Of a DNA stretch of 64,000 nucleotides, positions 44,655 to 64,000 are shown piece after piece. The DNA is from Candidatus Kapaibacterium sp. (GTDB taxonomy: Bacteria > Bacteroidota > Ignavibacteria > Kapaibacteriales > UBA2268). The notes under the pieces were generated by a model, which saw only the letters and a program-made list of their open reading frames with translations, did not search any database and was not told the origin of the DNA. The DNA lies in assembly GCA_023957315.1 (NCBI GenBank), contig JAMLHE010000018.1, forward strand, positions 1,616-65,615, given 5' to 3'. The number at the start of each line of letters is the position of its first letter. Position 1 is the first letter of the stretch. Made by a program: the position numbers and the translations under genes.

Positions 44655-44676
44655 AGTATTTAAAACTTAATTTAAA

Positions 44677-44700
44677 GGGAGCAAATGCTCCCTTTTTTTT
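44677..44700 (+). terminator. pckA Rho-independent terminator
   Basis: GGGAGC-AAAT-GCTCCC followed by T8. Confidence 0.7.
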
Positions 44701-44901: not shown

Positions 44902-47169
44902 ATGAAATTGAGATTTATATTACTGCTGTTTTCAATTTTATTACTCAGTAATCAAATTGTACTATCTCAAGTTCAAGGACAACAAAGGATTGATTCGCTA
45001 TTGAACGAAATTACAAATTTGCGTGATGATTCGACCGGAGTAATATTATTGGCGCAATTGTCCTTCAGTTACCAAGGAATCAACCCTCAAAAAGGTGTTG
45101 ACTATGGAAATATGGCATTCAACTTAGCAAGCAAAATTAAATGGGACAAAGGTATATCGGAAGCATACAATGCCATTGGTACTAACTACATGTCACTTTC
45201 GGAGAATCAAAAAGCATTAGATTATTTCGAGAAATCTATCAAAATCAATATGCGGATTCAATATAAAAGCGGTATTGCTACTAATTACAATAATATTGCC
45301 ATAATGTATTCCAGAGAATATGATTATGATAAATCTCTCGAATATTATGAAAAGGCTTTGAAAATTAATCGAGAATTAGGTAAAAAGAATGCTATTGCCA
45401 GTAATCTATTTAATATTGGAAATATTTATCGAAATAAGTTGAATTATAACAAGGCAATCGAAAATTATTTTCAATCCCTAAAGGTAAATGAAGAAATTGG
45501 CAGAAAAGTCGGCGTAGCTAATAATTTAGAGAATATTGGGTTGATTTATTCTCGTCAGAATATTTTTGATAAAGCGATTGAGTACTATCTAAAAGCTCGA
45601 GATATAAATGCTGAATTAGGTAGAAAGGTTAATTTGGCTAACAACATTAATAATATTGGAGTTATATATACTCACCAAAATGATTACTTGCGAGCAATTG
45701 AATACTTCAACGAATCACTCGAAATTAATTTGCAAATTGGTAATCAGCGTTCAATTGCTAATAATTATAGCAACTTGGGAGATGTTCAGCAAAAAATCGG
45801 CAATTATGCTAAATCTTTAGAATTTTTCCATAAAGCATTAGAAATTAATGAAAAAATTGACAATCCAAACGGTAGAGCCATAAACTATGGTAATATCGGT
45901 ACTACTTATTTGAACCAAATTCTTTTTCCGAGTGGAGACACCAATAATAGAACAATGGTTTTGGATGAAGCTCTGCAAGATACAATTTTGAATAAAAGCT
46001 ATTTTTATCTCAATAAAGCGATTAGTGTTTTGACAGAATTAGACGACATTCACAAATTATCATATTATCACGAAAAATTAGCACTTGTGTGTGAATTATT
46101 AGGTGATTATCAAGCTGCCTACGAATCCTTCAGAAAGCATAAAACTATGCAAGACAGCATATTCTCATCGGAAAATAAAAAAGTATCTGAATCAATTGCA
46201 GAACGTGACAATCAACTAAAAGATGAAAAAATTAAAAGTTTGGAAGCCATTGACCATATCAATGATTTGTACAAATCAATATTGTTTGGCAGCGTATTCT
46301 TCCTCATAATTTTGTTGACAACAATATACGTTAGATTTAGAGAAAAGAAGAAGTTAAGCGAAAAATTAACTTTTCAAAATCAAGAAATTGAGATTCAAAG
46401 AGCAAACCTTGAAGAAATGAACGAGCATGTTTTTTCTTCAATTCGTTATGCTTCTTCTATTCAAAATGCTTTACTGCCTTGGGAAAATACACTTGCGAAT
46501 TCCTTCAAAGAGCACTTTACAATTTACAAACCCAAAGCAATAGTTTCAGGTGATTGTTATTGGTACCAAAGTGTAAATGGAATTAAATTTGTGGCAGCTG
46601 TAGATTGCACCGGTCATGGCGTGCCGGGTTCGATGTTAGCCGTTATTGCTAATACTGCTCTTGATGATGCTGTTGTAAGCAAAAGACTCACCGATACATC
46701 AGAAATATTGCACAATATAAATATGAAAGTTACGGAAGTTCTTCACCAACGAGATTTAGAAAACACATCACGAGATGGTATGGAAATAGCATTGGTAGCA
46801 ATTCATAAGGAAAAATTGCAATTTTCCGGTGCAGGACGACCGCTTTATATTTTCGACAAGGAACTCGAGATTATCAAGACAGACCGCAAAGGCATTGCAG
46901 GTTATTTGAACAATTTAGACTATGAATATAAGTCTCATGTATGTCCGATTCACGATGGGATGAAAATTTATTTAACTACCGATGGTTATGCTGACCAAAT
47001 GAACGAAGAGGGGAAAAAATTTGGTACAAAGAGATTTCTTGAACTATTGAAAAAAATATCAATGAAACCACTCAAAGAACAACATGAGATATTACTTAGC
47101 GAATTAGCTTTTCACCAAGGCAGCAGAAACCAGATTGACGATATTACAATTGTTGGTATTGAATTGTGA
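44902..47169 (+). CDS. Unit 1: signal peptide-TPR-coiled coil-TM-PP2C/SpoIIE-type phosphatase
   Basis: ATG 44902 gives MKLRFILLLFSILLLSNQIVLSQ. About 7 TPR-like 40-aa units, TM SILFGSVFFLIILLTTIYV, then RFREKKKLSE. PP2C series IVSGDCYWY, VDCTGHGVPGS, RDGMEIAL, LTTDGYADQ, QIDDITIVG. A TACATTTG -7-like motif sits at 44859-44866. Confidence 0.85.
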   Translation: MKLRFILLLFSILLLSNQIVLSQVQGQQRIDSLLNEITNLRDDSTGVILLAQLSFSYQGINPQKGVDYGNMAFNLASKIKWDKGISEAYNAIGTNYMSLSENQKALDYFEKSIKINMRIQYKSGIATNYNNIAIMYSREYDYDKSLEYYEKALKINRELGKKNAIASNLFNIGNIYRNKLNYNKAIENYFQSLKVNEEIGRKVGVANNLENIGLIYSRQNIFDKAIEYYLKARDINAELGRKVNLANNINNIGVIYTHQNDYLRAIEYFNESLEINLQIGNQRSIANNYSNLGDVQQKIGNYAKSLEFFHKALEINEKIDNPNGRAINYGNIGTTYLNQILFPSGDTNNRTMVLDEALQDTILNKSYFYLNKAISVLTELDDIHKLSYYHEKLALVCELLGDYQAAYESFRKHKTMQDSIFSSENKKVSESIAERDNQLKDEKIKSLEAIDHINDLYKSILFGSVFFLIILLTTIYVRFREKKKLSEKLTFQNQEIEIQRANLEEMNEHVFSSIRYASSIQNALLPWENTLANSFKEHFTIYKPKAIVSGDCYWYQSVNGIKFVAAVDCTGHGVPGSMLAVIANTALDDAVVSKRLTDTSEILHNINMKVTEVLHQRDLENTSRDGMEIALVAIHKEKLQFSGAGRPLYIFDKELEIIKTDRKGIAGYLNNLDYEYKSHVCPIHDGMKIYLTTDGYADQMNEEGKKFGTKRFLELLKKISMKPLKEQHEILLSELAFHQGSRNQIDDITIVGIEL

Positions 47170-47342
47170 CATATTCCATCTGTTTAGTAACTTATAATTA
47201 TACATTTCATTGAATATAAATATAAAGTTCACATAAACTTTATTAAAGTTAATTATACGTTGTAATGTTAATATAAATTAATTGGAAAAAATGAATATAT
47301 AGCATATTTTTGTAGTTTGCAAATAAATTAGGGTAAACTAAA

Positions 47343-48506
47343 TTGGAGCAGATTACAAATGTTATTCTTGACAATGCCAGACAATTAGGAGATTCTCATG
47401 CTGACGATTTCATAAGTGAAGTTGTTAAAAAGCATGAATTAAAGGAGATTAATGTTTTCTTCAAATCATTGGTTTACAACAACCAATTGCACAAACCCGG
47501 CATCCCGTCAGACTTCACTGACTATGTAAATAAAAACTCAAGTCTTCCTGCTTGGGCTGACAAATCAAAAATCGAAATTGCCCAAAATGCTTTCACTCGA
47601 ATTGGACCCGTTTTCGTAGTTTCCTATTTTTGCAAATCACTCCCGGAATGTTACGCTTGTGGCAAAGGTGCCGAAGTCTTGTATAAAACGGGACGTCTGA
47701 CCACCCATACCCGAAGACGTGTAGCCCAAACTGCACAATTTGTTCTTGATGTAATGTCACCCGGAGGATTGGAAGAAAATGGGCGAGGCATTGCAACATC
47801 ACTCAAAGTTAGACTGATGCACGCCTCAATCAGATATTACTTTATGAATGAGGTAAATCGCGGGAAAATCGAATACGATCCGAATAATTACGGTTACCCG
47901 ATTAATCAGGAAGATTTGTTAGGCACAATGCTCGCATTTTCTTGCGTGGTTATAGAAGGAATGGAACGTCTTGGTTTCACGATTTCTGTAGCTGAAAAGG
48001 ACGCAATATTGCATTTGTGGAAATGTGTCGGGTATCTGATTGGCATTGACGAGAAATTAATGCCGATTGACTATCATACAGCGCTCCAAACTTGGCAAAT
48101 GATTACCGAAAGACATTTTAAACCCACGATGGCAGGAAGTGACCTCACTAATCTATTGGTAGAATTTTTAGATGAAATATTGCATGAAAAGTATTTATAT
48201 GATGTAGTGCCGATTATGATGCATAGACTTTTGGGCGACAATACTACAAAACTTGTCGGGGTTCGTACTCCGAAATTATACAATCCAATTGCTGTTATCT
48301 CATTTATATTAGGTATATGGCTATTGAAATTCGAAAGTCGAGGTTTTATTTCTAAAATAACTTCACATTACGTGAATATGAAACTTATGATTGGTTTGGA
48401 AAAATATATAGCCGAAGGCGAAGATACCGGCATATATATTCCTCCAAGTCTTCGTAAAGATTGGCAATTAGACAATCATTTGCAATCATTATTTAAAAAG
48501 AGGTAA
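47343..48506 (+). CDS. DUF2236/MpaB-like oxygenase family protein (tentative)
   Basis: 387 aa, TTG start (uncertain). The segment VRLMHASIRYY and the overall helical composition recall DUF2236. Family call is from memory only. Confidence 0.5.
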   Translation: MEQITNVILDNARQLGDSHADDFISEVVKKHELKEINVFFKSLVYNNQLHKPGIPSDFTDYVNKNSSLPAWADKSKIEIAQNAFTRIGPVFVVSYFCKSLPECYACGKGAEVLYKTGRLTTHTRRRVAQTAQFVLDVMSPGGLEENGRGIATSLKVRLMHASIRYYFMNEVNRGKIEYDPNNYGYPINQEDLLGTMLAFSCVVIEGMERLGFTISVAEKDAILHLWKCVGYLIGIDEKLMPIDYHTALQTWQMITERHFKPTMAGSDLTNLLVEFLDEILHEKYLYDVVPIMMHRLLGDNTTKLVGVRTPKLYNPIAVISFILGIWLLKFESRGFISKITSHYVNMKLMIGLEKYIAEGEDTGIYIPPSLRKDWQLDNHLQSLFKKR

Positions 48507-48510
48507 ATCT

Positions 48511-49176
48511 ATGGATAATTTGCTAAATCTTCAAAATTTGAATCTACCTCAAATGATTCTATTTATAATTGGATGTATTTTTTGGCTGCTTACATATATA
48601 ATCTATATTAAAAATATCAAATCCAAACAATTTGTAGAGATTCCACTAATAGTTGTCTGCCTGAATATTGCTTGGGAATTCATTTGGAGCTTTCCATTCG
48701 GTAGCTCTGTGGGCGACTATATGGGAACTTCGATTCAAATAGGCTATAGTTTGTGGTTTTTCTTTGATTGTTTCATATTTTGGGGAATTTTGAAATATGG
48801 TTACAAACAGTTCCAAAACCCATTCTTTCGCGATAATTCTAAAATAGTAGCTATCATCACTGTTATTTTTGGATTGATATTTTTCTATACATTTAAAAAT
48901 GCCGGATACGATACAGAAATTGGAACAATTTCAGCATACCTCGACAATATTATGATTTCAGCATTATACATATTCCTATTTGTCAATCATGCCGATAAAT
49001 CGCTCTTCTCATATCATGTAGCTTGGTATAAAATGCTCGGGACTGGTTTAATATCAGTTGCTTTAGTTTGGCATTGGAACGAAAATTATTTTCTGATGTT
49101 CATCACAACGGTAGTTCTGCTGTTAGATATTTATTACGTATTCATTGTGCATAAAAGGAGGAAATCCCTCAAATGA
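48511..49176 (+). CDS. Polytopic integral membrane protein (about 6-7 TM), unknown function
   Basis: 221 aa, highly hydrophobic and aromatic-rich (AWEFIWSFPFG, WFFFDCFIFWG). Starts 4 nt after the previous stop. Its stop overlaps the next start (ATGA at 49173-49176). Confidence 0.6.
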   Translation: MDNLLNLQNLNLPQMILFIIGCIFWLLTYIIYIKNIKSKQFVEIPLIVVCLNIAWEFIWSFPFGSSVGDYMGTSIQIGYSLWFFFDCFIFWGILKYGYKQFQNPFFRDNSKIVAIITVIFGLIFFYTFKNAGYDTEIGTISAYLDNIMISALYIFLFVNHADKSLFSYHVAWYKMLGTGLISVALVWHWNENYFLMFITTVVLLLDIYYVFIVHKRRKSLK

Positions 49177-50600
49177 ACAAGAGTTTCATAAAGAATATTA
49201 CCACAAAAGGCGTAAAGCCCGGAATGACAGCTCATGAAGAAAAGGGTGTAATTATAACAAATTACATACTTTTACTGGCTTCCGGTGTCGCCTTTTTGCG
49301 TATCTTTTTGTTTTTATATACAAGTGATTTCTATCACAGTTTGATTTCAATAGCTTCAACTGTGCTATTTCTATTCGCATATTATATGAATACAAAGCAG
49401 TATTATGATTTTGCTAAATTTTTTCTAATGGTATCAGGTACTGCAGGTCCATTAATGAAGGAATTAATGTCCGGCGGAACAGGAAATCAACACTTTCTCA
49501 CTATAGCAAGTTTTGGTGTAGTTTTTTTATTGTTCAGTTTAAAAGATAAAGTCAAACTGATAATAGCACTTATGCTGCCTACATCCAGTATTATCATCAC
49601 AATATTTTTCCCCAATATCATTTCCGAACCAATAATCTTATCTCCCGAAACGATGAAAATGGAGAAATTTTTTGGAGTAATGTCGGCAAGTATTATTATT
49701 GTGTTTGTCATATGGTATTTCGTCAAACAAAGCGCCAATAGCGAATTAAAGTTAATAAGTTCAAACGATTTACTACAGAAATTCAATAATGAAATTTCTG
49801 AGCAAAAAGCATTGATTGAAGAGCAACATAGGGCACTCACGGCTTCAATTCAATATGCGAAAGATATTCAGTCCGTCATATTACCTTCAAAAACAGAACT
49901 CAATGCCTTGTTCCCCGACAATATTATATTCTACAAACCAAAAGATGTCGTTTCCGGTGATTTTTATTGGTTTGCCGAAACCCGAGATTGGAGATTTATC
50001 GCAGTGGTTGATTGTACAGGGCATGGCGTTCCCGGAGCATTCATGTCAATGATTGGCAATGATTTGCTTAACCAAATTGTAATTTTGCAAGGAATCACAA
50101 AGCCTTCTGTTATATTGCGAATGTTGCACGAAGGAGTCCGAACTACTCTAAAGCAAGATGTAGAAGATTCTCGGCAAATGGATGGCATGGAGGTTTGCTT
50201 GCTTGCTTTCGATAAAACGCAAAAGAAAGTTGTCTTTTCAGGTGCAAAAAGACCATTGTGGATAATCCGATTCGAAAATGGGAAAAAGAAATTTGTAGAA
50301 CTTAAGGGTGACAAACACTCCATCGGGGGACGCCAGAAAGAGGAAGAGCGGACTTTCACAGATTACAATCTCGATTTTGAAGACGAAAGTCTTATGCTCT
50401 ATCTCACAACTGACGGCTTCGCCGACCAAATGAACGAATCCGGAAAGAAATACGGTTCTAAACGTTTCACTGAGCTTTTAAATTCAATCGCTGATAATCC
50501 ATTATCAGAACAATATACAATCTTGAGTAATGAACTCGCCGCTCACCAAGGTGACAAGCACCAAATTGATGATATAACAATAATAGGGGTGAGGATATGA
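49173..50600 (+). CDS. Unit 2: polytopic-membrane N-terminal domain fused to a PP2C/SpoIIE-type phosphatase (no TPR)
   Basis: 475 aa, about 5-6 TM helices, coiled linker, IQYAKDIQSVILP. Then VVSGDFYWF, VDCTGHGVPGA, MDGMEV, LTTDGFADQ, QIDDITIIGVRI. Confidence 0.8.
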   Translation: MNKSFIKNITTKGVKPGMTAHEEKGVIITNYILLLASGVAFLRIFLFLYTSDFYHSLISIASTVLFLFAYYMNTKQYYDFAKFFLMVSGTAGPLMKELMSGGTGNQHFLTIASFGVVFLLFSLKDKVKLIIALMLPTSSIIITIFFPNIISEPIILSPETMKMEKFFGVMSASIIIVFVIWYFVKQSANSELKLISSNDLLQKFNNEISEQKALIEEQHRALTASIQYAKDIQSVILPSKTELNALFPDNIIFYKPKDVVSGDFYWFAETRDWRFIAVVDCTGHGVPGAFMSMIGNDLLNQIVILQGITKPSVILRMLHEGVRTTLKQDVEDSRQMDGMEVCLLAFDKTQKKVVFSGAKRPLWIIRFENGKKKFVELKGDKHSIGGRQKEEERTFTDYNLDFEDESLMLYLTTDGFADQMNESGKKYGSKRFTELLNSIADNPLSEQYTILSNELAAHQGDKHQIDDITIIGVRI

Positions 50601-52744
50601 GAAATTTGATAATATTTTTCGTAGGATTCTTTTCTTTAGTAAATATAAGCTTAGCCCAACTTGAGGGTCAAGCGAGAATAGATTCACTCCTTAAAGAGCT
50701 ACCTAAAATAAAGGAAGATACAAATGCGGTGAATTTACTTTCAGAGCTATCATTTTTATACTATTCAATTAATCCGGATAAAGGTATTGAATTCGGAAAT
50801 AAAGGATTAAAAATTTCCGGAAAAATTAATTGGAAGGAAGGAGAAGCAAAGTGTTATAGTTCGTTAGGTGTGAATTATGTAGGAGGGAAATCTGACCCTT
50901 CAAGAGCACTTGAATATTTCACTATAGCTCTCAAAATTGATGAAAAATTTGGCAATATAGCCGGTATTGCCAGACATCTGGGAAATATTGGAATAATTTT
51001 TGAGAATCAGTCTGACTATCTAAAAGCTCTTGAATATTATCAAAAGGCTCTTAAAATTGATGAAAAATTAAATAATAGAGCCGGTATTGCCAGACATCTA
51101 GGAAATATTGGACTTATTTATGATTATCAAGCCGACTATCCAAAAGCTCTTGAATATCATTATAAGTCACTCGACATCGAAAAAGAGATGGGGAATAAGC
51201 CTGGGATTTCAATGAGCTTTGCAAATATTGGAATCATATATAAGAATCAATCCGATTACCCAAAAGCCATTGAGTATTTCCATAAAGCCCTTAAAATGGA
51301 TGATGAAATTGCCAATAAATCTGGAATTGCATCAAATCTTGATAACTTAGGAACAATTTATACATACCAATTAGATTACCCCAAAGCACTCGAATATTAT
51401 CATAAAGCACTAAAAATCAACGAAGAGATAGGTAATAAATTTAGAATAGCTGTAAATCTTGAAAATATTGGGAGCGTTTATTTCTTTTTATCCCAAGATT
51501 CAACATTTGAAAATAGCGAACCTATAACACAAGTATTTCTAAATAGTGATTTTTATTTAAATAAATCCATTGAATTATCGGAAAAAGCTCTTAAGATTTA
51601 TATTGAAATTGGTGCAATTTACAACTATTCAAATTTGTTACATTCACTCTCCGAATCATACAAATTTAAAGGCAACTATAAAAAAGCTTTCGAAGCATTT
51701 AAAGAATATAAAGCATTACAAGATTCAGTTTTTTCTATGGATAAGCAAAAGGAAATAGCTAATCTCGAAGCGATTCGCGAAAATGAATTAAAAGATGCTG
51801 AAATAACAATTTTAAATACGCAGAAGAAGGCGCAACAGTTTCAATCATACTTGCTTGGCGGTGGAGCGATAGTTCTTTTAGGGGCTTTTTGGTAATGCCT
51901 TCCTACGTTTTCGCGAAAAGAAAAATTGAGCGACAAACTTGCAATTCAAAATAATGAAATTGAAAATCAGAAATTATTAGTAGAGGGAAAAAAGTAGAGG
52001 AAATCTACGCATCAATTAGGTATGCATCAACAATTCAGAATGCGATACTGCCTTGGGACGCTACATTAGGCAAGGCTTTTAGTGATGTCATGGTTTTCTT
52101 CAAGCCCAAAGATATTGTCTCAGGTGATTCGTATTGGTTCAAAGAAGTGGACGGAGTCAAGTTTTGAGGCGGTCGTAAGGTGCACGGGGCACGGCATTCC
52201 GGGAGCGATGCTAACTGTAATTGCCTCTACAGCCTTGGATGATGCCGTTCTTGGCAAGAGATTAAGCGACCCGGTAGAAATACTTACATATATAAATGAA
52301 AAAGTAACAGAAGTATTAAATCAAAAATTAGCTGAAAACAATATTCGCGACGGAATGGAAGTCGCACTACTCGCCATTCATCAAGATAAGATTAAGTTTT
52401 CAGGTGCCGGTCGACCTTTGTATCTCAAGAATGGCACATTGGAAATCATCAAAACCGACAAACGGGGCATAGCCGGAAGCACAAAGAATGATGAATATCA
52501 ATTCAATTCTGTTGAAATCGAAAAATCAGAAAATATTACACTTTACCTAACTACGGACGGATTTGCCGACCAAATGAACGAAGACGGCAAAAAATTCAGC
52601 ACCCGCCGCTTTTTGGCATTACTCGAATCAATTGCCGATAAGCCACTATCGGAACAATATAAAATATTAAACAATGAACTCGCAGCTCATCAAGGCGAAA
52701 AACACCAAATTGACGACATAACAATAATAGGGGTAAGGATATGA
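50597..52744 (+). pseudogene. Unit 3: TPR-TM-PP2C paralog disrupted by clustered indels (or a local consensus error)
   Basis: The ORF 50597-51895 (TPR part) stops inside the TM helix (..LLGAFW*). The PP2C part resumes as ORF 52082-52744. Aligned by eye to unit 5 (56295-56607), the 51886-52180 stretch shows at least 5 indels plus substitutions. The flanks are identical to paralogs. Confidence 0.7.
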
Positions 52745-55002: not shown

Positions 55003-57146
55003 GAATATTAATATTAATTCTAACACTTGTATTTATGATAAATACAGCAAAATCTCAATTGAGTGGACGATCGAAAATTGATTCGCTTCTTAAGGAATTA
55101 CCAAAAGGAAAGCAAGACACAAATCATGTGAAATTGCTCGCTGATTTATCTTTCGAATATTATCGAATTGACCCAGACACAGGAATTGAGTATGGGGAAA
55201 AGGGCTTAGAACTCGCAAAAGAAATAGACTGGAAAGAAGGCGAAGCATACTGCTATAATTCCCTTGGAACTAATAATGTTGGAAAATCTGATTACCCGAA
55301 AGCATTAGAAATTTTTCATAAATCTTTGAAAATTAATGAAGAATTGGGAAAGAAATCAAACATAGCTAATAATCTTGGAAATATGGGAGTTATTTACAGC
55401 TCTCAATCAGATTACCCAAAAGCATTAGAATATTTTCATAAAGCACTGAAAATTAATGAAGAATTGGGAAGGAAACCAAATATAGCTAATAATCTTGGTA
55501 ATATTGGTAATATTTACTCCGAACAATCAGATTACCCGAAAGCATTAGAATATTTACATAAAGCTCTTAAAATTAATGAAGAGATGGGAAATAAATCCGG
55601 TATAGCTTCAAATCTTGCTAATATTGGTAATATTTACTCCGAACAATCAGATTACCCGAAAGCATTAGAATATTATCATAAAGCTCTGAAAATTAATGAA
55701 GAGTTGGGGAATAAATCACGAATTGCAAATAATTTAATAAATATGGGTTCATTATTCACATCAATGGGTGAACTTGATAAATCATTAGATTATTTAAAAC
55801 GAGGATTAAAATTAAATATTGAAATTCAGAATCATAGGCAGACTGCTTATACTTTAAATATGCTTGCCGGTAATTATATAAATCAAGCAAAAATGTACGA
55901 TTCTGTAAGAACAATAGGAGAATCGAAAGATTATTTAGTTGACAGTAAAATAGAAAACAGCTATCAGTCAGCATTGCAATTTGCGAAAGAAGCAGAACAT
56001 CTTGCCGACAGTATTGGACTTGCTGAATTGCAACCTAAAATATTTCATAATTTATATGAGGCATATAAAAAATTAAATGAACCGGCAAAAGCTCTTGAAT
56101 ATCACGAAAAATATACTATTATGAATGATTCCATTTTCAGCATGGACAAATCCAAAGAAATTGCTAATCTCGAAGCGATTCGCGAAAATGAATTAAAAGA
56201 TGCTGAAATAACAATTTTAAATACGCAGAAGAAGGCGCAACAGTTTCAATCATACTTGCTTGGCGGTGGAGCGATAGTTCTTTTAGGGGCTTTTGGTATT
56301 GCCTTCCTACGTTTTCGCGAAAAGAAAAAATTGAGCGACAAACTTGCAATTCAAAATAATGAAATTGAAAATCAGAAATTATTAGTAGAGGAAAAAAGTG
56401 AGGAAATCTACGCATCAATTAGGTATGCATCAACAATTCAGAATGCGATACTGCCGTGGGACGCTACATTAGGCAAGGCTTTTAGTGATGTCATGGTTTT
56501 CTTCAAGCCCAAAGATATTGTCTCAGGTGATTCGTATTGGTTCAAAGAAGTGGACGGAGTCAAGTTTTTGGCGGTCGTAGATTGCACGGGGCACGGCATT
56601 CCGGGAGCGATGCTAACTGTAATTGCATCTACAGCTCTGGATGATGCGGTTCTTGGCAAAAGATTAAGCGACCCGGCTGAAATTCTTACATATATTAATG
56701 AAAAAGTAACAGACGTGCTCAATCAACGTTTATCAGAAAATCAAACACGCGACGGAATGGAAGTAGCGCTAATTGCTATTCATCAAGATAAAATTCAGTT
56801 CTCCGGCGCCGGGCGACCTTTGTATCTCAAGAATGGCACATTGGAAATAATCAAAACCGACAAACGGGGCATAGCCGGTAGCACAAAGAATGATGAATAT
56901 CAATTCAATTCTATTGAAATCGAAAAATCAGAAAATATTACACTTTACCTAACTACGGACGGATTTGCCGACCAGATGAACGAAGACGGCAAAAAATTCA
57001 GCACGCGCCGCTTTTTGGCATTACTGGAATCAATTGCCGAAAATCCTCTAAAAGAACAATATAAAATATTAAATAACGAACTCGCAGCTCATCAAGGTGA
57101 CAAGCACCAAATTGATGATATAACAATAATAGGAGTGAGGATATGA
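54999..57146 (+). CDS. Unit 5: signal peptide-TPR-coiled coil-TM-PP2C/SpoIIE-type phosphatase
   Basis: 715 aa, same architecture. ATGA overlaps at both ends. Contains near-perfect 120-bp internal TPR repeats. Confidence 0.88.
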   Translation: MRILILILTLVFMINTAKSQLSGRSKIDSLLKELPKGKQDTNHVKLLADLSFEYYRIDPDTGIEYGEKGLELAKEIDWKEGEAYCYNSLGTNNVGKSDYPKALEIFHKSLKINEELGKKSNIANNLGNMGVIYSSQSDYPKALEYFHKALKINEELGRKPNIANNLGNIGNIYSEQSDYPKALEYLHKALKINEEMGNKSGIASNLANIGNIYSEQSDYPKALEYYHKALKINEELGNKSRIANNLINMGSLFTSMGELDKSLDYLKRGLKLNIEIQNHRQTAYTLNMLAGNYINQAKMYDSVRTIGESKDYLVDSKIENSYQSALQFAKEAEHLADSIGLAELQPKIFHNLYEAYKKLNEPAKALEYHEKYTIMNDSIFSMDKSKEIANLEAIRENELKDAEITILNTQKKAQQFQSYLLGGGAIVLLGAFGIAFLRFREKKKLSDKLAIQNNEIENQKLLVEEKSEEIYASIRYASTIQNAILPWDATLGKAFSDVMVFFKPKDIVSGDSYWFKEVDGVKFLAVVDCTGHGIPGAMLTVIASTALDDAVLGKRLSDPAEILTYINEKVTDVLNQRLSENQTRDGMEVALIAIHQDKIQFSGAGRPLYLKNGTLEIIKTDKRGIAGSTKNDEYQFNSIEIEKSENITLYLTTDGFADQMNEDGKKFSTRRFLALLESIAENPLKEQYKILNNELAAHQGDKHQIDDITIIGVRI

Positions 57147-59779
57147 GAAAATTGATAATACTATCCGTAATGTTTTGTGCAGTAGTAAATATTAGCTTAG
57201 CCCAGTTGCGTGGTCAGGCAAGAATTGACTCCCTTATTATGGTACTACCCAAAATGAAGGAGGATACTAATGCAGTGAATTTATTGGCTGATTTATCATT
57301 TTTATACAATTCAATTAATCCTGATGAAGGCATTAAATATGGCGAGCTAGGACTAAAACTTGCTGAAAAACTAAAATGGAAATTTGGTAAAGCTAACTGT
57401 TACAACTCTATTGGGCTAAATTATGCCGAGCTCAACGATTACCACAAAGCGTTGGATTTTTACCACAAAGCACTGGAATTGAATGAGGAGATTGATTATT
57501 TACAACAAGCTGCTGGAAATTTAAACAATATTGGAATAGTTTACAGATACTTATCGGATTACTTAAAAGCGCTCGAATATTATCAAAAAGCTCTTAAAAT
57601 TTATGAAGTGCTGGGTAGTAAATCAGGTGTAGCTAGTAATCTTGGTAATATTGGTAATATTTACTCCGGTCAATCGGATTACCCTAAAGCATTAGAATTT
57701 CATTATAAAGCTCTTAAAATTAATGAGGAATTAGGTAGAAAAACTAATATTGCTAATAATCTTGGCAATATTGGAACTGTTTACTCCATTCAAGCGAACT
57801 ACCCTAAAGCATTAGAATATATTTATAAAGCTCTTAAAATTAATGAGGAATTAGGTAGAAAAACTAATATTTCAAATAATCTTTCTAATATTGGTAAGAT
57901 TTATTTACGTCAATCTGATTTCCCCAAAGCACTTGATTATTATCATAAATCGCTTAAAATTGATGAAGAATTAGGAAGTAAATCCCGCATAGCTTCAAAC
58001 CTTTTGAGAATTGGTATGACTTATTTCTATCAATCTGATTACCCCCAAGCACTTGAATATTGTCATAAAGCACTAAAAATTAATGAGGAATTAGGTGTGA
58101 AAATTAATATGGCACGTGATTTCGGAAATATTGGTATGATTTATGCATCTCAATTGCACTACTCAAAAGCATTAGACTTTTATCATAATGCTCTTAAAAT
58201 TCATGAGGAGCTGGGAGATAAAGTGAGCATAGCTTTTAATCTTGGAAATATTGGGGTTTTATATTACAGTTTATCTCAAGATACGGTTTTATCAAAAATA
58301 AGTGAAGGTACCAATCTTTTAAGTCTCAATAGAGAACTAAATCTCAATAAATCGATTGAATACTCTCTTAAATCTATTGATTTACTCAAAGAAATTGGCG
58401 AATCTGACAATCAATCAAAAACTTTAAAAAGATTATCTGATGCTTACACAGATAAAGGCGATTACAAAAAAGCATTCGAAGCATACAAAGACTATAAAGA
58501 GCTGCGAGATTCAATTTTTTCTATAGATAAGCAAAAAGAATTGGCAAATTTAGAATCCAAAAGAGAGTTAGAAATAAAGCAGAAAGAAAATCTATTGTTG
58601 ATTAAAGATAACCAATTGTTCAATGCAGAATTAATTCAAAAGAATCAAAAAATTAATTTAGCTGAAAAAGAAAAAGAACTCCAGCATCTTGCATTTTTGA
58701 AAGAACAAGCCGAGAGGCAAGAGAAAGAGCAACTCTTGACATTGACTGAGACTCAAATTCAACTTCAGTCAACTCAAATCGAGTCTTTGGATAAAGAAAA
58801 AGAGATACAAAATGCAGAGCTAAAAGCAAAAAATTTACAACGAAACTTTTTTATTGCAGGCGTAATTGTTTTTATAATTTTATTCTTGTTTGCATTTATT
58901 CGTTTCCGTGAAAAGAAAAAGCTGAGCGATGAGCTTGCACTTCAAAACGCTGAAATTGAAAAACAAAAGACTATTGTTGAATCTCAAAAAGCAATTGTCG
59001 AGGAGCAAAAGTTCATACTTCAAGAAAAAAATGACCATATTTATTCTTCTGTCCAATACGCCGCTACAATTCAACAGGCGATTTTACCATGGGACAGTAT
59101 AATTAATGCTGCTTTCTCAGATATTTTAATTTTCTACAAACCGAAAGATATTGTTTCCGGTGATTCATATTGGTTCAAAGAAGTGGACGGAGTCAAGTTC
59201 CTTGCGGTCATAGATTGCACAGGGCACGGCATTCCCGGAGCAATGCTGACTGTAATTGCATCTACAGCTCTGGATGATGCGGTTCTTGGCAAAAGATTAA
59301 GCGACCCGGCAGAAATTCTTTCCTATATAAATGAAAAAGTAACAGAAGTATTAAATCAAAGATTAGCTGAAAACAATATCCGTGACGGAATGGAAGTCGC
59401 ACTACTCGCCATTCATAAAGATAAGATTAAGTTTTCAGGTGCCGGGCGACCGCTCTACCTCAAAAATGACACACTCGAAATCATCAAAACCGACAAACGT
59501 GGCATTGCAGGCAGTACAAAAAATGATTATTACCAATTCAACTCAATTGAAATCGAAAGAACCGAGGGCAAAACTCTTTACCTAACAACTGACGGCTTCG
59601 CCGACCAGATGAACGAAGACGGCAAAAAATTCAGCACCCGCCGCTTTGTGGCATTACTTGAATCAATTTCCGATAAGCCAATTCCCGAGCAACACGAATT
59701 GCTCGAAACAGAATTTAACAATCACCGCGACAACCGAGAGCAAATTGATGATATAACGATAATAGGGGTGAGGATATGA
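57143..59779 (+). CDS. Unit 6: signal peptide-TPR-extended coiled coil-TM-PP2C/SpoIIE-type phosphatase
   Basis: 878 aa. Extra ~100-aa coiled-coil segment (KRELEIKQKENLLLIKDNQ...EKEIQNAELKAKNLQ) before TM FFIAGVIVFIILFLFAFI, then RFREKKKLSD and the PP2C series. Confidence 0.88.
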   Translation: MRKLIILSVMFCAVVNISLAQLRGQARIDSLIMVLPKMKEDTNAVNLLADLSFLYNSINPDEGIKYGELGLKLAEKLKWKFGKANCYNSIGLNYAELNDYHKALDFYHKALELNEEIDYLQQAAGNLNNIGIVYRYLSDYLKALEYYQKALKIYEVLGSKSGVASNLGNIGNIYSGQSDYPKALEFHYKALKINEELGRKTNIANNLGNIGTVYSIQANYPKALEYIYKALKINEELGRKTNISNNLSNIGKIYLRQSDFPKALDYYHKSLKIDEELGSKSRIASNLLRIGMTYFYQSDYPQALEYCHKALKINEELGVKINMARDFGNIGMIYASQLHYSKALDFYHNALKIHEELGDKVSIAFNLGNIGVLYYSLSQDTVLSKISEGTNLLSLNRELNLNKSIEYSLKSIDLLKEIGESDNQSKTLKRLSDAYTDKGDYKKAFEAYKDYKELRDSIFSIDKQKELANLESKRELEIKQKENLLLIKDNQLFNAELIQKNQKINLAEKEKELQHLAFLKEQAERQEKEQLLTLTETQIQLQSTQIESLDKEKEIQNAELKAKNLQRNFFIAGVIVFIILFLFAFIRFREKKKLSDELALQNAEIEKQKTIVESQKAIVEEQKFILQEKNDHIYSSVQYAATIQQAILPWDSIINAAFSDILIFYKPKDIVSGDSYWFKEVDGVKFLAVIDCTGHGIPGAMLTVIASTALDDAVLGKRLSDPAEILSYINEKVTEVLNQRLAENNIRDGMEVALLAIHKDKIKFSGAGRPLYLKNDTLEIIKTDKRGIAGSTKNDYYQFNSIEIERTEGKTLYLTTDGFADQMNEDGKKFSTRRFVALLESISDKPIPEQHELLETEFNNHRDNREQIDDITIIGVRI

Positions 59780-62700
59780 GAAAAGCAATTATTACCCTCG
59801 CTATTTTATTGTCCATCTCTTTTTTGGGGATGACGGGCGCAAACGCCCAAAACCTAGACTCACTCTTAGGTGTTTGGAACAACAAATCCCAACCCGACTC
59901 CAACCGCGTTACCGCTTACAACGATTACATTTGGGACGGCTACCTCTTTTCCAAGCCCGACTCGGCCACAATACTAGCCGAGGCTCTGCACGCTTATGCA
60001 AAAAAGCACAGATACCCAAATGCATCAGCCCAAGGCTATAACCTTCAAGGCGCCGCAAACTACCAACAAGGCAATTACCCCAGCGCCTTGGAAAACTACG
60101 AAAAGGCTCGAGTAATAAACGAAGAACTAGGTAATAAGCGGTGGTTGGCGATGAACCTGAACAATATTGGCCTCATTTACAATATCCAAGCCGATTACCC
60201 CCGCGCCTTGGAATACTTTGAAAAGAGTCTAGCGATTGATGAAGAAAGCGGTGATAAAAACGGCATCGCAGGGAGCCTGATGAATATTGGCTTGATTTAC
60301 CAAAGCCTAGGCGATTACCCACGCGCCTTGGAATACTATGAAAAGAGTCTGGCGATTCAGGAAGAAATCGGGGATAAAAAAGGCATCGCAGGTAGCCTGA
60401 ATAATATCGGCATGATTTACAATATCCAAGCCGATTACCCCCGCGCCTTGGAATACTACGAAAAGGCTCGAGTATTAAACGAAGAACTTGGTAATAAGCA
60501 GTGGTTGTCGTACAACCTTGGCAATATTGGCGACATTTACTCTACCCAAGCCGATTACCCCCGCTCTTTGGAATACTATGAAAAGAGTCTGGCGATTCAG
60601 GAAGAAATGGGGGATAAAAACGGCATCGCAATTAGCCTGGGTAGTATTGGCATGCTCTACCAAAAACAAGGCAAGAACACCCTCGCGCTAAACTATTGCC
60701 AAAAAGCCCTAACACTTGCCGAAGAAACTGGTGCTTTAGAATGGCAAAAAAACGCCTGCCAATGCCTGTACACTAGCTACAAAGCCATGGGCAACAGCGA
60801 TAAAGCCCTGCAATATTATGAGCTTATGATTGTGGCACGCGACAGCATCTTTAATGAAGAGAATACCAAAAAGCTGGTGCAAATAGATATGCAATATGAA
60901 TTTAACCGCAAAGAAGCTGCCGCCAAAGCCGAGCAAGACAAAAAAGATGCAGTAGCTGCACAAGAAATGCAACGGCAAAAACTGGTGCGCAATGGCTTTA
61001 TAGCAGGTGCTATTGTATTTATAATATTATTCCTGATTGTATTTGTAAGGTTTCGCGAAAAGAAAAAATTGAGCGACAAACTTGCAATTCAAAATAATGA
61101 AATTGAAAATCAGAAATTATTAGTAGAGGAAAAAAGTGAGGAAATCTACGCATCAATTAGGTATGCATCAACAATTCAGAATGCGATACTGCCGTGGGAC
61201 GCTACATTAGGCAAGGCTTTTAGTGATGTCATGGTTTTCTTCAAGCCCAAAGATATTGTTTCCGGAGATTCGTATTGGTTCAAGGAAGTGGACGGAGTGA
61301 AGTTTCTGGCAGTCATAGATTGCACAGGGCATGGTATCCCCGGAGCAATGCTAACTGTAATTGCCTCTACAGCCTTGGATGATGCCGTTCTTGGCAAGAG
61401 ATTAAGCGACCCGGCAGAAATACTTACATATATAAATGAAAAAGTAACAGAAGTATTAAATCAAAAATTAGCTGAAAACAATATTCGCGACGGAATGGAA
61501 GTCGCACTACTCGCCATTCATCAAGATAAGATTAAGTTTTCAGGTGCCGGTCGACCTTTGTATCTCAAGAATGGCACATTGGAAATCATCAAAACCGACA
61601 AACGGGGCATAGCCGGAAGCACAAAGAATGATGAATATCAATTCAATTCTGTTGAAATCGAAAAATCAGAAAATATTACACTCTACCTCACCACCGACGG
61701 TTTTGCTGACCAGATGAACGAAGACGGCAAAAAATTCAGCACCCGTCGCTTTTTGGCATTACTGGAATCAATTGCCGAAAATCCTCTAAAAGAACAATAT
61801 AAAAGATTAAATAACGAACTGGCAGCTCATCAAGGTGACAAGCACCAAATTGATGATATAACAATAATGAGTGAGGATATGAGAAAATTGATAATACTAT
61901 CCGTAATGTTTTGTGCAGTAGTAAACATCAGCTTTGCTCAACTTCAAGGGCAGGCGAAAATTGATTCGCTCAAAGCGAAACTGCCAAAAGCTAAACAAGA
62001 CACAAATGCTGTGAATTTGCTTGAGCAACTATCTTTTGAATTATATTCTATCGACCCGGACAAAGGAATAGAATATGGTTTGCAAGGAGTGGAACTCGCG
62101 AAAAATTTAGGCTGGAAGGAAGGTGAAGCAAATTGTTATAATTCTTTGGGTACAAATTATGATGAAAAATCCGACTACCCAAAAGCATTAGAATATTATC
62201 ATAAAGCTTTGAAAATTTATGAGGAATTGGGAAAAAAATCTGGAGAAGCAGCAAATCTCGGAAATATTGGTCTTTTATATTCTTCTCAATCCGACTACCC
62301 GAAAGCATTAGAATATTATCATAAAGCTCTGAAAATCAGTGAAGAGTTAGGAGATAAATCTGGAATAGGAAGACAGCTTGGAAATATTGGCATTATTTAC
62401 GAAAATAAATCCGACTACCCGAAAGCATTGGAGTATTATTTGAAAGCTTTGAAAATTAATGAAGAATTGGGAAGGAAATCTGGTGTTGCTACAAATCTTG
62501 GAAATATTGGGATTATTTATGCAAATCAATCGGACTACCCCAAAGCACTTGAATATTTTCATAATGCCCTTAAAATTAATGAAGAGCTGGTAAATAAATC
62601 TGGCGTTGCCAGGCATCTTGGAAATATTGGTCTTTTATATTCTTCTCAATCCGACTACCCGAAAGCTTTAGAATATTTTCATAAAGCTCTTAAAATTAAT

Positions 62701-64000
62701 CAAGAACTGGGAAACAAAAGAGTCGAAGCGTATAATCTTGGTAATATGGGAGAATTATATTATAAGTTATCCCAAGATACGGTATTATCTCAAATAAGTG
62801 AAAGCACAATTCTTGTAAGTCTAAATAAAGAAATAAATCTCAATAGAGCGATAGATTACACACTCGAAGCGATTAAAATATTTGAAGAAATTGGGGAATT
62901 ACATATTAGATCAACTTATTTAAAAAACCTCTCAGAAGCATATAAACAAAAAGGCAATTCAGATAAAGCATTTGAGGCATTACAAGAACACATGAAACTC
63001 AAAGACTCAGTGTTTAATATGGATAAACAGAAAGAAATTGCAAATCTTGAAGCAAAACGAGAAAATGAACTTAAAGATGCCGAAATTGTAATTCTTCAGA
63101 CCGAGAAAAAAGCACAGCAGTTTCAATCTTATCTGCTTGGTGGTGGTGTGATTGTGCTTTTTGGTGCTTTTGCCCTTGCCTTTATTCGTTTTAGGGAGAA
63201 GAGAAAGCTAAGCGATGAGCTTGCACTTCAAAACGCTGAAATTGAAAAGCAGAAGACTATTGTCGAATCTCAAAAAGCAATTGTCGAGGAGCAAAAGTTC
63301 ATACTTCAAGAAAAAAATGACCATATTTATTCTTCTGTCCAATACGCCGCTACAATTCAACAGGCGATTTTACCATGGGACAGTATAATCAATGCTGCTT
63401 TCTCAGATATTTTAATTTTCTACAAACCGAAAGATATTGTTTCAGGTGATTCATATTGGTTTAAAGAGGTTGAAGGTATCAAGTTTTTGGCAGCTATTGA
63501 TTGTACAGGTCATGGCATTCCAGGAGCGATGCTGACTGTGATTGCCTCAACTGCTCTTGATGATGCCGTTCTTGGCAAGAGATTAAGCGACCCGGCAGAA
63601 ATACTTACATATATAAATGAAAAAGTAACAGAAGTATTAAATCAAAAATTAGCTGAAAACAATATTCGCGACGGAATGGAAGTCGCACTACTCTGCATTC
63701 ATCAAGATAAGATTAAGTTTTCAGGTGCCGGTCGACCTTTGTATCTCAAGAATGGCACATTGGAAATCATCAAAACCGACAAACGGGGCATAGCCGGTAG
63801 CACAAAGAATGATGAATATCAATTCAATTCTGTTGAAATCGAAAAATCAGAAAATATTACACTCTACCTCACCACCGACGGTTTTGCCGACCAGATGAAC
63901 GAAGACGGCAAAAAGTTCAGCACCCGCCGCTTTTTGGCATTACTTGAATCAATTGCCGAAAATCCTCTAAAAGAACAATATAAAAGATTAAATAACGAAC
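59776..64000 (+). CDS. Units 7+8 read as one open frame: two complete TPR-TM-PP2C modules fused in frame by a 2-nt deletion at the junction; continues past the window end
   Basis: Absent from the ORF track because there is no stop before the window end. I translated 59776-64000 manually in one frame and saw no stop. Unit 7 = 59776-61878 (MRKAIITLAILLSISFLGMTGANAQ...QIDDITIMSED). Unit 8 starts at the in-frame ATG 61879 (MRKLIILSVMFCAVVNISFAQ...) and could also be translated on its own. Confidence 0.75.
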   Translation, partial: MRKAIITLAILLSISFLGMTGANAQNLDSLLGVWNNKSQPDSNRVTAYNDYIWDGYLFSKPDSATILAEALHAYAKKHRYPNASAQGYNLQGAANYQQGNYPSALENYEKARVINEELGNKRWLAMNLNNIGLIYNIQADYPRALEYFEKSLAIDEESGDKNGIAGSLMNIGLIYQSLGDYPRALEYYEKSLAIQEEIGDKKGIAGSLNNIGMIYNIQADYPRALEYYEKARVLNEELGNKQWLSYNLGNIGDIYSTQADYPRSLEYYEKSLAIQEEMGDKNGIAISLGSIGMLYQKQGKNTLALNYCQKALTLAEETGALEWQKNACQCLYTSYKAMGNSDKALQYYELMIVARDSIFNEENTKKLVQIDMQYEFNRKEAAAKAEQDKKDAVAAQEMQRQKLVRNGFIAGAIVFIILFLIVFVRFREKKKLSDKLAIQNNEIENQKLLVEEKSEEIYASIRYASTIQNAILPWDATLGKAFSDVMVFFKPKDIVSGDSYWFKEVDGVKFLAVIDCTGHGIPGAMLTVIASTALDDAVLGKRLSDPAEILTYINEKVTEVLNQKLAENNIRDGMEVALLAIHQDKIKFSGAGRPLYLKNGTLEIIKTDKRGIAGSTKNDEYQFNSVEIEKSENITLYLTTDGFADQMNEDGKKFSTRRFLALLESIAENPLKEQYKRLNNELAAHQGDKHQIDDITIMSEDMRKLIILSVMFCAVVNISFAQLQGQAKIDSLKAKLPKAKQDTNAVNLLEQLSFELYSIDPDKGIEYGLQGVELAKNLGWKEGEANCYNSLGTNYDEKSDYPKALEYYHKALKIYEELGKKSGEAANLGNIGLLYSSQSDYPKALEYYHKALKISEELGDKSGIGRQLGNIGIIYENKSDYPKALEYYLKALKINEELGRKSGVATNLGNIGIIYANQSDYPKALEYFHNALKINEELVNKSGVARHLGNIGLLYSSQSDYPKALEYFHKALKINQELGNKRVEAYNLGNMGELYYKLSQDTVLSQISESTILVSLNKEINLNRAIDYTLEAIKIFEEIGELHIRSTYLKNLSEAYKQKGNSDKAFEALQEHMKLKDSVFNMDKQKEIANLEAKRENELKDAEIVILQTEKKAQQFQSYLLGGGVIVLFGAFALAFIRFREKRKLSDELALQNAEIEKQKTIVESQKAIVEEQKFILQEKNDHIYSSVQYAATIQQAILPWDSIINAAFSDILIFYKPKDIVSGDSYWFKEVEGIKFLAAIDCTGHGIPGAMLTVIASTALDDAVLGKRLSDPAEILTYINEKVTEVLNQKLAENNIRDGMEVALLCIHQDKIKFSGAGRPLYLKNGTLEIIKTDKRGIAGSTKNDEYQFNSVEIEKSENITLYLTTDGFADQMNEDGKKFSTRRFLALLESIAENPLKEQYKRLNNE

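Follow-up and report, generated by a model that had tools for sequence, protein, structure and literature searches.

The phosphatases RsbU, RsbP and SpoIIE of Bacillus subtilis are controlled via their N-terminal modules, with a switch formed by helices at the interface of the dimer, and in SiaA the N-terminal two-thirds of the protein carry transmembrane segments and a HAMP domain. SiaA of Pseudomonas aeruginosa is a membrane-anchored phosphatase of the PPM/PP2C type, with a helical linker that leads into a dimeric PP2C domain (PDB 6K4E; PMC7647112), and it is encoded by a single gene of the siaABCD operon. A periplasmic TPR sensor has been described for FimS of Porphyromonas gingivalis, which is a histidine kinase (PMC11053733). 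Here we analyze a stretch of 64,000 nucleotides (nt) from Candidatus Kapaibacterium sp. (contig JAMLHE010000018.1), called “the window” in the following. From position 44902 to its end at 64000, the + strand of the window carries eight co-directional PP2C genes (Pfam SpoIIE) in a chain of open reading frames (ORFs). The PP2C modules were named M1-M8 in 5′ to 3′ direction.

As the best explanation of the locus as a whole, we consider it probable that it represents an array of at least eight receptor phosphatases of the PPM/PP2C type, the genes of which are co-directional and probably transcribed together; these would be SiaA-type enzymes of a Kapaibacteriaceae-like member of the Bacteroidota. 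The proteins share with SiaA the membrane anchor and the helical linker into a PP2C domain. They differ from it in their input, because positions 1-383 of the SiaA profile have no match in the array proteins, whose sensor is either a TPR superhelix or polytopic, and in their genetic context, i.e. at least eight tandem paralogs with no siaB, siaC or siaD gene in 64 kb. With FimS they have in common the signal peptide or anchor, the periplasmic TPR and the transmembrane input. However, FimS has a HisKA/HATPase output and is encoded by a single gene together with a response regulator, whereas the output of the array is PP2C. RsbU, RsbP and SpoIIE have the PPM fold and belong to the same Pfam family, but they are more distant than SiaA in sequence and structure, are cytoplasmic (SpoIIE is polytopic), have STAS substrates encoded in the operon and do not form arrays. 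The features of the locus are as follows:

44674-44695, + strand: intrinsic-terminator-like hairpin with a 9-bp stem and a T run, 3′ of PEPCK; putative upstream boundary of the transcription unit of the array
44902-47169 (or TTG start at 44881), + strand: M1; signal peptide, 6 TPR units, transmembrane helix at amino acids (aa) 459-477, SiaA-like PP2C
47343-48506, + strand: MpaB/Lcp-like oxygenase (PF09995), inside the array; conserved partner of the Pyr4-like gene
48511-49176, + strand: Pyr4-like transmembrane terpene cyclase (PF25129); stop codon overlaps the M2 start (ATGA)
49173-50600, + strand: M2; polytopic membrane N-terminus (about 5 hydrophobic segments), SiaA-like PP2C
50597-52744, + strand: M3, one broken gene (ORFs 50597-51895 and 52082-52744); unique TPR ectodomain with 5 units; transmembrane helix, linker and start of PP2C disrupted
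52741-55002, + strand: M4; signal peptide, 6-7 TPR units, transmembrane helix at aa 457-475, PP2C
54999-57146, + strand: M5; signal peptide, 4-5 TPR units and capping helices, long helix with the transmembrane segment (aa 419-437, nt 56253-56309), PP2C (aa 488-715, nt 56460-57143); exemplar for the structure model
57143-59779, + strand: M6; signal peptide, 7 TPR units, extra-long periplasmic coiled coil of about 130 aa, transmembrane helix at aa 568-586, PP2C
59776-61879, + strand: M7; signal peptide, 5 TPR units, transmembrane helix at aa 408-426, PP2C; no stop codon
61880-64000, + strand: M8; signal-like segment, 5-6 TPR units, transmembrane helix at aa 418-436, PP2C; the window ends about 30 codons before the expected stop

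Architecture of the receptor phosphatases

An earlier note on this DNA had interpreted the C-terminal domains as PP2C phosphatases, and a profile search bears this out. All eight units match the Pfam model SpoIIE (PF07228) above the gathering score, with E-values from 1e-17 to 1e-20; single modules score 63.9-72.9 bits (cutoff 25), and the fused ORF of M7 and M8 scores 122.5 bits over two domains. Seven of the eight units also match TPR_12, TPR_1 and related Pfam models strongly. As assembled, the locus is not a plain series of eight genes: six are intact, one is broken, and there is one fusion. The eight same-strand modules listed previously are thus all present as PP2C units, but M3 is broken, and M7 is fused in frame with M8.

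Hydropathy values revealed that the seven TPR units have an N-terminal hydrophobic segment and exactly one further transmembrane helix, which is followed by the sequence RFREKKK, while about five hydrophobic segments were found in M2. The TPR units recur strictly every 40 residues, and each gene encodes 5-7 good ones. The previously noted layout, i.e. signal peptide, TPR, coiled coil, transmembrane helix and RFREKKK in seven proteins and a polytopic N-terminus in one, was recovered, except that the range of units is 5-7 and not 5-8. An AlphaFold model of M5, based on a 62-sequence alignment, has a mean predicted local distance difference test (pLDDT) value of 88.3. It contains helical repeats at aa 23-379, one continuous helix at aa 382-484 that includes the transmembrane segment, and an alpha-beta-beta-alpha PP2C domain at aa 488-715. 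Taken together, the topology signals (signal-like N-terminus, a single transmembrane helix followed by basic residues according to the positive-inside pattern, and the continuous helix of the model) support a periplasmic TPR part and a cytoplasmic PP2C domain for the predicted proteins of the seven TPR members, in agreement with the orientation suggested before. The N-terminus would be a Sec-type signal or anchor, and the continuous helix comprises a coiled coil in the periplasm, the transmembrane segment and a linker in the cytoplasm.

The TPR part together with the transmembrane helix matches the NCBIfam model of P. gingivalis FimS (NF053520) with 94-138 bits, e.g. aa 198-487 of M4 align with model positions 118-387; the FimS equivalog cutoff of 600 bits is not reached. 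At the level of sequence comparison, each TPR module is a FimS-like input fused to a SiaA-like output. A Foldseek comparison showed that the ectodomain of the M5 model resembles the TPRs of LGN/Pins and kinesin light chain (4WND, 3NF1; target TM-score 0.75-0.82). These also are superhelices of 40-42-residue units and bind extended peptides in their groove, but they are eukaryotic cytosolic adaptors with 19-22% identity, so that the likeness is a structural analogy only. According to entropy values, positions 24, 28, 31, 35, 38, and 39 are the most variable ones of the TPR unit. After registering on the L-G-Y pattern, positions 28, 31, 35, 38, and 39 correspond to the canonical TPR positions 2, 5, 9, 12, and 13, which form the concave ligand-contact face (PMC1261162). 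The paralogs would be a tractable set with which the ligands of FimS and other periplasmic TPR sensors could be sought.

The N-terminus of M2 has no match to a Pfam family above threshold; a near full-length match to MASE7, a membrane-associated sensor domain, is sub-threshold (E 0.079, 13 bits). The single-gene TPR-PP2C architecture is common, and the annotation “TPR repeat protein/serine phosphatase RsbU” is found for hundreds of protein clusters. Other proteins combine this TPR input with adenylate cyclase domains. With PADLOC, the array could not be assigned to a defence system; only matches to a generic TPR model and a weak match to PDC-S39 were obtained.

Phosphatase family and partner genes

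The ordered motifs SGD(S/C/F)YW, (V/I)DCTGHG, DGME, TDG(F/Y)ADQ and DDIT, which had been reported for the array before, are all present in M1, M2, and M4-M7, and the first four are present in M8, which is cut by the window end before the fifth. The conserved active-site residues of SiaA are D457, D474, G477, D600, G601, and D653 (PMC7647112). All six are retained in M1, M2, and M4-M7, and M8 has retained all of those that lie inside the window. In M3 the first of these residues is lost in frame, and the second is changed from Asp to Arg. A phosphatase activity that depends on Mn2+/Mg2+ and is directed at phospho-Ser/Thr is predicted for the array enzymes.

To place the PP2C domains within the family, sequence, structure and profile comparisons were used. 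The array domains are 34-35% identical to SiaA. A phmmer search with the cytoplasmic part of M4 against all PDB sequences yielded a single hit with E<0.01, the PP2C domain of P. aeruginosa SiaA (6K4E, E 2.2e-38), and no chain of RsbU, RsbX, RsbP or SpoIIE was found at this threshold. The PP2C domain of the M5 model (aa 488-715), which has block-mean pLDDT values of 82-97, adopts the alpha-beta-beta-alpha sandwich fold. Its top Foldseek hit is also 6K4E (E 6.5e-19, target TM-score 0.89, root-mean-square deviation 2.3 Å), and SpoIIE (5UCG) and RssB (3F7A) follow far behind, at about 1e-9 only. The SiaA model NF038263 is the sole phosphatase model of NCBIfam that is matched (184-196 bits), and the match covers model positions of about 384-658, i.e. 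the PP2C part. No family-specific model of SpoIIE or RsbU, e.g. TIGR02865 for SpoIIE or the N-terminal domain of RsbU, was matched in NCBIfam (E≤1e-3) or Pfam (E≤0.01). The PP2C domains are therefore closer to SiaA than to other characterised PPMs, and the comparisons of sequences and models place the enzymes in the SiaA-type and not in the RsbU/SpoIIE-type. The earlier note had proposed the latter; its assignment to bona fide PPM/PP2C phosphatases with metal-ligand residues was correct, but its choice of the subtype is not supported.

As the enzymes are SiaA-type, the expected partners are a SiaB kinase and a SiaC (DUF1987) protein, and not RsbV, RsbW and a sigma factor. No STAS, RsbW, SiaB, SiaC or sigma-factor domain was detected in the 41 other ORFs of the window that were scanned, in line with the previous statement that STAS/RsbV-like, RsbW-like and sigma-factor ORFs are missing. 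SiaC was also not found on contigs of the nearest relatives of the window among the best matches listed, and the neighbourhoods of three more distant TPR-PP2C homologs did not contain partner genes.

SiaB and SiaC were found beside TPR-PP2C genes three times, in the loci designated L021, L022, and L047. In L021 (Ca. Kapaibacterium sp., GCA_054685795.1), genes for a SiaB-family kinase, SiaC and a soluble PP2C are located directly upstream, on the same strand, of an array of three TPR-PP2C genes, the PP2C domains of which are 65-66% identical to that of M4. The SiaB protein matches NF038262 with 170 bits (cutoff 85). The SiaC protein matches PF09345 as well as PDB 6K4F (E 1.7e-25), and the NTSS phospho-site motif is conserved. 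The SiaC family is a very common one, with at least 6936 clusters, and at least two Kapabacteria assemblies contain a member. With a profile of SiaC homologs, 80 metagenome loci were retrieved, in about 72 of which SiaC is preceded by SiaB. In 11 of the 80 loci, a PP2C of the same clade is encoded directly 5′ of SiaB-SiaC. One of these is L022, in which a gene for a signal peptide-TPR-transmembrane-PP2C protein directly precedes SiaB, SiaC and a soluble PP2C. In the 10 further loci, the PP2C is 43-46% identical to the M2 query (160-238 bits), and other sensor domains are present in the four that were examined. L047 contains a TPR-transmembrane-PP2C gene that is convergent to a SiaB-SiaC pair. 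Array-clade PP2Cs are thus operonic with SiaB and SiaC, as is SiaA itself, in many metagenome loci and in one Kapaibacterium, and the window differs in this respect.

The same-clade PP2Cs with other sensors that are encoded upstream of SiaB-SiaC (L023, L036, L043, L081, L029) share with the array the motifs KPKDIVSGDFYW, DCTGHGVPGA, DGMD, DG(Y/F)ADQ and DD(I/V) behind a transmembrane helix and a coiled-coil linker. They differ in having other input domains and in being single genes that are operonic with their partners; L029 has a cytoplasmic N-terminus of the kinase-NTPase-GAF type. Judged from sequence alone, the four longest, with their long extracytoplasmic domains, look like Bacteroidota sensors with Y_Y_Y/beta-propeller domains.

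A classical RsbU/SpoIIE partner switch was weighed as an alternative. In that case a STAS anti-anti-sigma factor would be dephosphorylated, and a sigma factor would be controlled via an RsbW-like kinase encoded elsewhere. It would fit with the Pfam assignment to SpoIIE, with the annotation of JGI homologs as “serine phosphatase RsbU (regulator of sigma subunit)”, with an ECF sigma factor gene just beyond the array in L002-L004, L008, and L009, and with the STAS-like structure of SiaC (PMC7647112), which makes the two systems mechanistically close. We nevertheless regard this alternative as unlikely, in view of the large differences between the SiaA and the SpoIIE/RsbU hits described above. In addition, neither STAS nor RsbW genes were detected in the window or in any of the homolog neighbourhoods inspected, in contrast to the three instances of SiaB and SiaC, and the nearby sigma factor is of the ECF-type, is divergently oriented and is absent in L010.

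Because the enzymes are SiaA-type and SiaB/SiaC genes adjoin TPR-PP2C genes in relatives, we assign the array to a SiaABC-type partner switch. The substrate is likely a SiaC-type protein encoded outside the window. According to the mechanism that we propose, each TPR groove would have its own periplasmic ligand, which most likely is a peptide or a segment of a protein, and the dimeric helix would relay binding to the interface of the PP2C dimer, as is the case for SiaA and for switches of the RsbU/SpoIIE-type. All eight enzymes would act on the SiaC protein of this genome, i.e. all paralogs would share one cytoplasmic substrate, a phospho-threonine protein of the SiaC (DUF1987) family. The kinase that phosphorylates it would be of the SiaB family, with its gene located elsewhere in the genome. 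Many inputs would thereby converge on one partner-switch node. The downstream effector is a diguanylate cyclase in Pseudomonas and might be a histidine kinase in one Kapabacteria metagenome-assembled genome (MAG). PP2C partner switches are usually studied as one sensor and one switch, while at least eight receptors share one output here. If they do converge on a SiaC-type node, the locus would represent a natural many-to-one input architecture for the SiaABC switch, which so far is known mainly from biofilm control in Pseudomonas.

Several points weigh against this interpretation. The NCBIfam score for SiaA is well below the equivalog cutoff of 700 bits, because only the PP2C third aligns, and the full-length proteins do not qualify as SiaA equivalogs. 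The 64-kb window is devoid of SiaB, SiaC, STAS and RsbW genes, none were found on the inspected contigs of the closest relatives, and most TPR-PP2C homologs examined are orphans with unrelated neighbours. The substrate assignment is based on homology and on the gene context in relatives that are more distant. The soluble PP2C of L021 and L022 could be the true SiaC phosphatase, and the TPR enzymes would then have another substrate. Variability at TPR positions 2, 5, 9, 12, and 13 is general to TPRs and is no proof of different ligands. Finally, the lesions in M3 and the fusion of M7 and M8 indicate that there may be assembly errors where the 3′ halves are repeated (see below).

Two observations concern the variability of SiaBC loci. 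The soluble coiled-coil PP2C of about 340 aa that directly follows SiaC (L021, 8748-9788; L022, 9262-10287) belongs to a different subfamily, with RssB as the best NCBIfam match and only a weak match to SiaA, which suggests a two-phosphatase version of the SiaBC switch. In one of the Kapabacteria MAGs with SiaC (GCA_028376765.1, L102, 9447-11361), SiaB-SiaC is followed by a soluble HisKA/HATPase histidine kinase at the place that is taken by the diguanylate cyclase SiaD in Pseudomonas, and by analogy this kinase is a possible alternative SiaC effector.

Exchange among modules and copy number in relatives

For comparison, the same locus was analyzed in Kapabacteria/Ignavibacteriae MAGs, the assemblies of which are independent and come from ENA, JGI and NCBI. 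A syntenic locus is present in at least five independent assemblies, including a contig of 4.5 Mb. The order is one or more upstream TPR-PP2C genes, MpaB, Pyr4, the polytopic PP2C, and then a variable number of TPR-PP2C copies. In the window and in L010 PEPCK is located directly 5′ of the first gene. The number of downstream modules is 1 in L010, 2 in L008, 5 in L001 and L003, at least 4 in L011, at least 2 in L007, and at least 6 in the window. Upstream modules number 1 in the window and in L010, at least 2 in L001 and L008, and 3 in L007. The window and L010 have 85.5% DNA identity in their common flank.

The two halves of the modules are conserved to very different degrees. DNA identity between modules is 90-94% in the last 0.8-1 kb and 65-78% in the 5′ half that encodes the TPRs, and the ectodomains are 40-63% identical at the protein level. 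To compare the histories of the two halves, we calculated synonymous divergence (dS, Nei-Gojobori method) separately for ectodomains and PP2C halves, using the window modules and the modules of L001 (R1-R7). M1 and R1, which serve as the ortholog baseline, have values of 0.55 for the ectodomain and 0.58 for the PP2C half. Among M4, M5, and M7, the ectodomain values are about 2 or saturated, while the values for the PP2C half are only 0.33-0.40, i.e. the PP2C halves of these paralogs are less diverged than the ortholog baseline. The reverse was found between genomes, with 0.46 (ectodomain) and 1.06 (PP2C half) for M4-R3, and with 0.60 and 1.51 for M5-R5. The M4 ectodomain is orthologous to that of R3 (82% aa identity), but the PP2C half of M4 is not. 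These values imply different histories of the two halves: the ectodomains are old, and some of them are orthologous between genomes, while paralogs of the same genome have exchanged their PP2C halves.

This pattern is in accordance with a neighbour-joining tree that was calculated from the PP2C-coding DNA. The downstream modules group largely by genome, while the orthologs of M1 and M2 group by gene; these two are stable in relatives, with aa identities of 90-92% between M1 and R1 and of 91% between M2 and R2. Exceptions are M6 of the window, which pairs with the last module of L001, and the single downstream module of L010, which is placed beside the window cluster. M6 has a “type B” linker that is common to M8 and R7. 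The 5′ boundaries of the high-identity tracts vary by pair; some are at the periplasmic coiled coil, others at the stop-transfer sequence and others within the PP2C domain, so that the genes are mosaics. A mosaic structure is also evident in L010, in which the lone downstream gene combines an unrelated TPR ectodomain with a long coiled coil like that of M6 and a PP2C like that of M5 and M7. The comparison of sequences thus shows gene conversion or unequal crossing-over between the nearly identical 3′ PP2C halves, which homogenises the output domain within a genome. The same exchange would drive the differences in module number between relatives. The array evolves fast, and its copy number and its set of ectodomains differ between close relatives. 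What the locus documents is a signalling gene family in which concerted evolution is limited to the output half.

A further idea, which we put forward only tentatively and consider possible rather than probable, is that the array is a cassette for a receptor repertoire. The homogenised 3′ half would serve as a recombination handle for duplicating and deleting whole TPR receptors and for re-pairing them with output domains, and all members would feed one SiaB/SiaC switch. This would account for the range from 1 to at least 6 downstream copies and for the largely non-overlapping ectodomain sets in relatives that are about 85% identical in the flank. If true, the lineage could change its periplasmic sensing quickly without rewiring the cytoplasmic circuit.

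As repeats of this kind can tangle assembly graphs, the assembly itself has to be considered. Four indels (+1, -1, +2, +1) and a GAT to AGG change (Asp to Arg in DCTGHG) are found in M3, all within 51886-52185, a segment that otherwise is about identical to the M5 sequence; the lesions are located exactly where the paralogs turn near-identical. M3 is either a recent pseudogene or the result of a consensus error. Both are compatible with the data, because the lesions cluster in a near-identical stretch and the assemblies of relatives have frameshifts or contig breaks at equivalent places. At the M7/M8 junction, a 2-nt deletion is present at 61866-61879 in comparison with the other junctions (AATAATGAGTGAGGATATGAGA versus AATAATAGGAGTGAGGATATGAGA), and the two missing bases are those directly before the GAGTGAGGATATGA junction. 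As a consequence, M7 reads in frame into M8, and the two form one fused ORF as assembled. The previously given end of M7 at 61878 is therefore incorrect; no stop codon is present at 61876-61878, and the frame is open from 59776 to the end of the window.

It could thus be argued that the array, or a part of it, is an artefact, i.e. that a metagenome assembler expanded one or two genes, or made a chimera of them or of the alleles of strains that co-exist. The high identity of the 3′ halves over 0.8-1 kb, the positions of the lesions, and the frameshifts and contig breaks in relatives (L004 starts within the array, and R3 differs between L001 and L003) would be in accordance with this view. However, every module has its own ectodomain with saturated dS, the same gene order occurs in the independent assemblies from three databases, and the orthologous ectodomains of the pairs M4-R3 and M5-R5 are in the same relative order. 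An artefact in this wide sense has a very low probability in our view. In particular, it is very unlikely that the assembler expanded one or two genes, a possibility raised in the earlier note, because of the divergent ectodomains and the same locus in independent assemblies. Local errors in the repeated halves are possible.

Two of the assemblies have peculiarities. L010 (JAGXRP010000082.1) is recorded as a MAG of Desulfobulbaceae, yet its PEPCK is 99% identical to that of the window at the aa level, and the whole locus is syntenic with Kapabacteria; this contig is probably mis-binned. Both ends of the 4.5-Mb contig JAVSMQ010000001.1 (L011, 1-15812; L012, 4503791-4524369) carry the same array with MpaB, Pyr4 and PP2C genes. 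The per-gene identities to the window are the same for the first five genes, and at the far end (L012) fragmented PP2C matches are found further downstream. This pattern looks like an untrimmed circular overlap within the repeated array.

All parts of the array belong to known families; a long overlapping array around a core of MpaB, Pyr4 and the polytopic PP2C, its strong copy-number variation among relatives, and the homogenisation of the output half versus the diversified inputs were not found described. Literature searches (SpoIIE/TPR/Ignavibacteria, RsbU/Ignavibacterium, PP2C partner-switching/Bacteroidetes, Kapabacteria signal transduction) did not reveal a description of such arrays. 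The previous statement that this organisation is not known to be described thus holds for the literature, but the same locus recurs in public Kapabacteria/Ignavibacteriae MAGs. As all parts are of known families and the organism is uncultured, the value of the locus is comparative rather than revolutionary.

Gene junctions and neighbouring genes

An overlap of 4 nt (ATGA) is found at six junctions (49173, 50597, 52741, 54999, 57143, and 59776), and overlaps of 4 nt recur at most junctions in those relatives whose gene calls were seen. The overlaps had been claimed for every junction from 48511 onwards, but the genes at 48506/48511 are separated by a gap of 4 nt, and M7 and M8 are joined without a stop codon. 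The additional claim that each overlap is preceded by GGTGAGGA did not hold. The sequence is approximate only, since GGTAAGGA, GGTACGGT, and GAGTGAGGA occur too, and it is absent before the overlap of Pyr4 and M2. We considered GGTGAGGA as a candidate Shine-Dalgarno (SD) site and rejected it: it ends 1-2 nt 5′ of the ATG, which is too close, and it is accounted for by the codons for the conserved C-terminal residues G-V-R-I. SD-like motifs precede 14 of the 42 genes of the window, compared to a background of 8%, and the host organism may use SD sites.

A scan for sigma-70 promoters and terminators inside the array yielded a total equal to the shuffled expectation, and the terminator-like matches on the + strand are few, weak and at chance level. 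The one useful result of the terminator scan was the strong hairpin at the end of PEPCK. The scan and the conserved overlaps are consistent with one or two long transcripts, which we regard as plausible, and the array is probably co-transcribed. Overlapping genes may be coupled by termination and reinitiation.

The MpaB/Lcp-like oxygenase and the Pyr4-like cyclase (47343-49176) form a conserved two-gene module, which is also found outside Kapabacteria with 29-38% identity (L013-L017). Across the aligned Kapabacteria loci, the Pyr4-like cyclase is 80-98% identical. Bacterial Pyr4-like cyclases have been termed largely unexplored (PMC13307353). It is conceivable that the array is tied to this pair and that the phosphatases, especially the polytopic M2, sense or regulate a membrane product derived from isoprenoids or meroterpenoids instead of sensing various periplasmic ligands. 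MpaB, Pyr4 and M2 are an invariant core in all six Kapabacteria/Ignavibacteriae versions of the locus, Pyr4 and M2 overlap by 4 nt, and the M2 N-terminus is membrane-embedded and MASE7-like, though sub-threshold. However, the pair occurs without a PP2C gene in contigs of Saprospiraceae, Fibrobacteria, Crocinitomix and Bacteroidia, and pairs or arrays of TPR-PP2C genes occur without MpaB-Pyr4 in L005 and L021. A link of this kind would account for M2 at most, and not for the seven TPR receptors, and we regard it as quite improbable.

The flanks of the array differ between relatives. In L007 (GCA_019637995.1, 2093-9428), a PrkA-DUF444-SpoVR-PrkA cluster is located 5′ of the array, which is not the case at the window locus; we take this set to recall the starvation genes yeaG-yeaH-ycgB of E. 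coli. On the 3′ side, L002, L003, and L004 (12499-15187) as well as L008 (13340-15957) contain, on the opposite strand, a gene for a 717-aa protein sorted via type IX secretion (T9SS) that overlaps the gene for the ECF-type sigma factor. A gene for an AraC/GyrI-like regulator lies between the array and the T9SS/ECF genes in L008 and L009, and L010 has only the AraC-like gene.

Elsewhere in the window, the ORFs 27671-28477 and 28535-29341 (both 268 aa) were compared as candidate paralogs and turned out not to be paralogs. The gene at 10166-11113 encodes a tyrosine recombinase (Phage_integrase and a SAM-like N-terminal domain) and is located among housekeeping genes; it is probably XerC/D-like rather than the integrase of a mobile element. 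Three large genes (11431-15813, 37374-38717, and 38720-41479) encode proteins with a T9SS C-terminal sorting domain, which contain choice-of-anchor D, BNR and Ig-like domains, respectively, and thus fit a cell envelope of the Bacteroidota-type.

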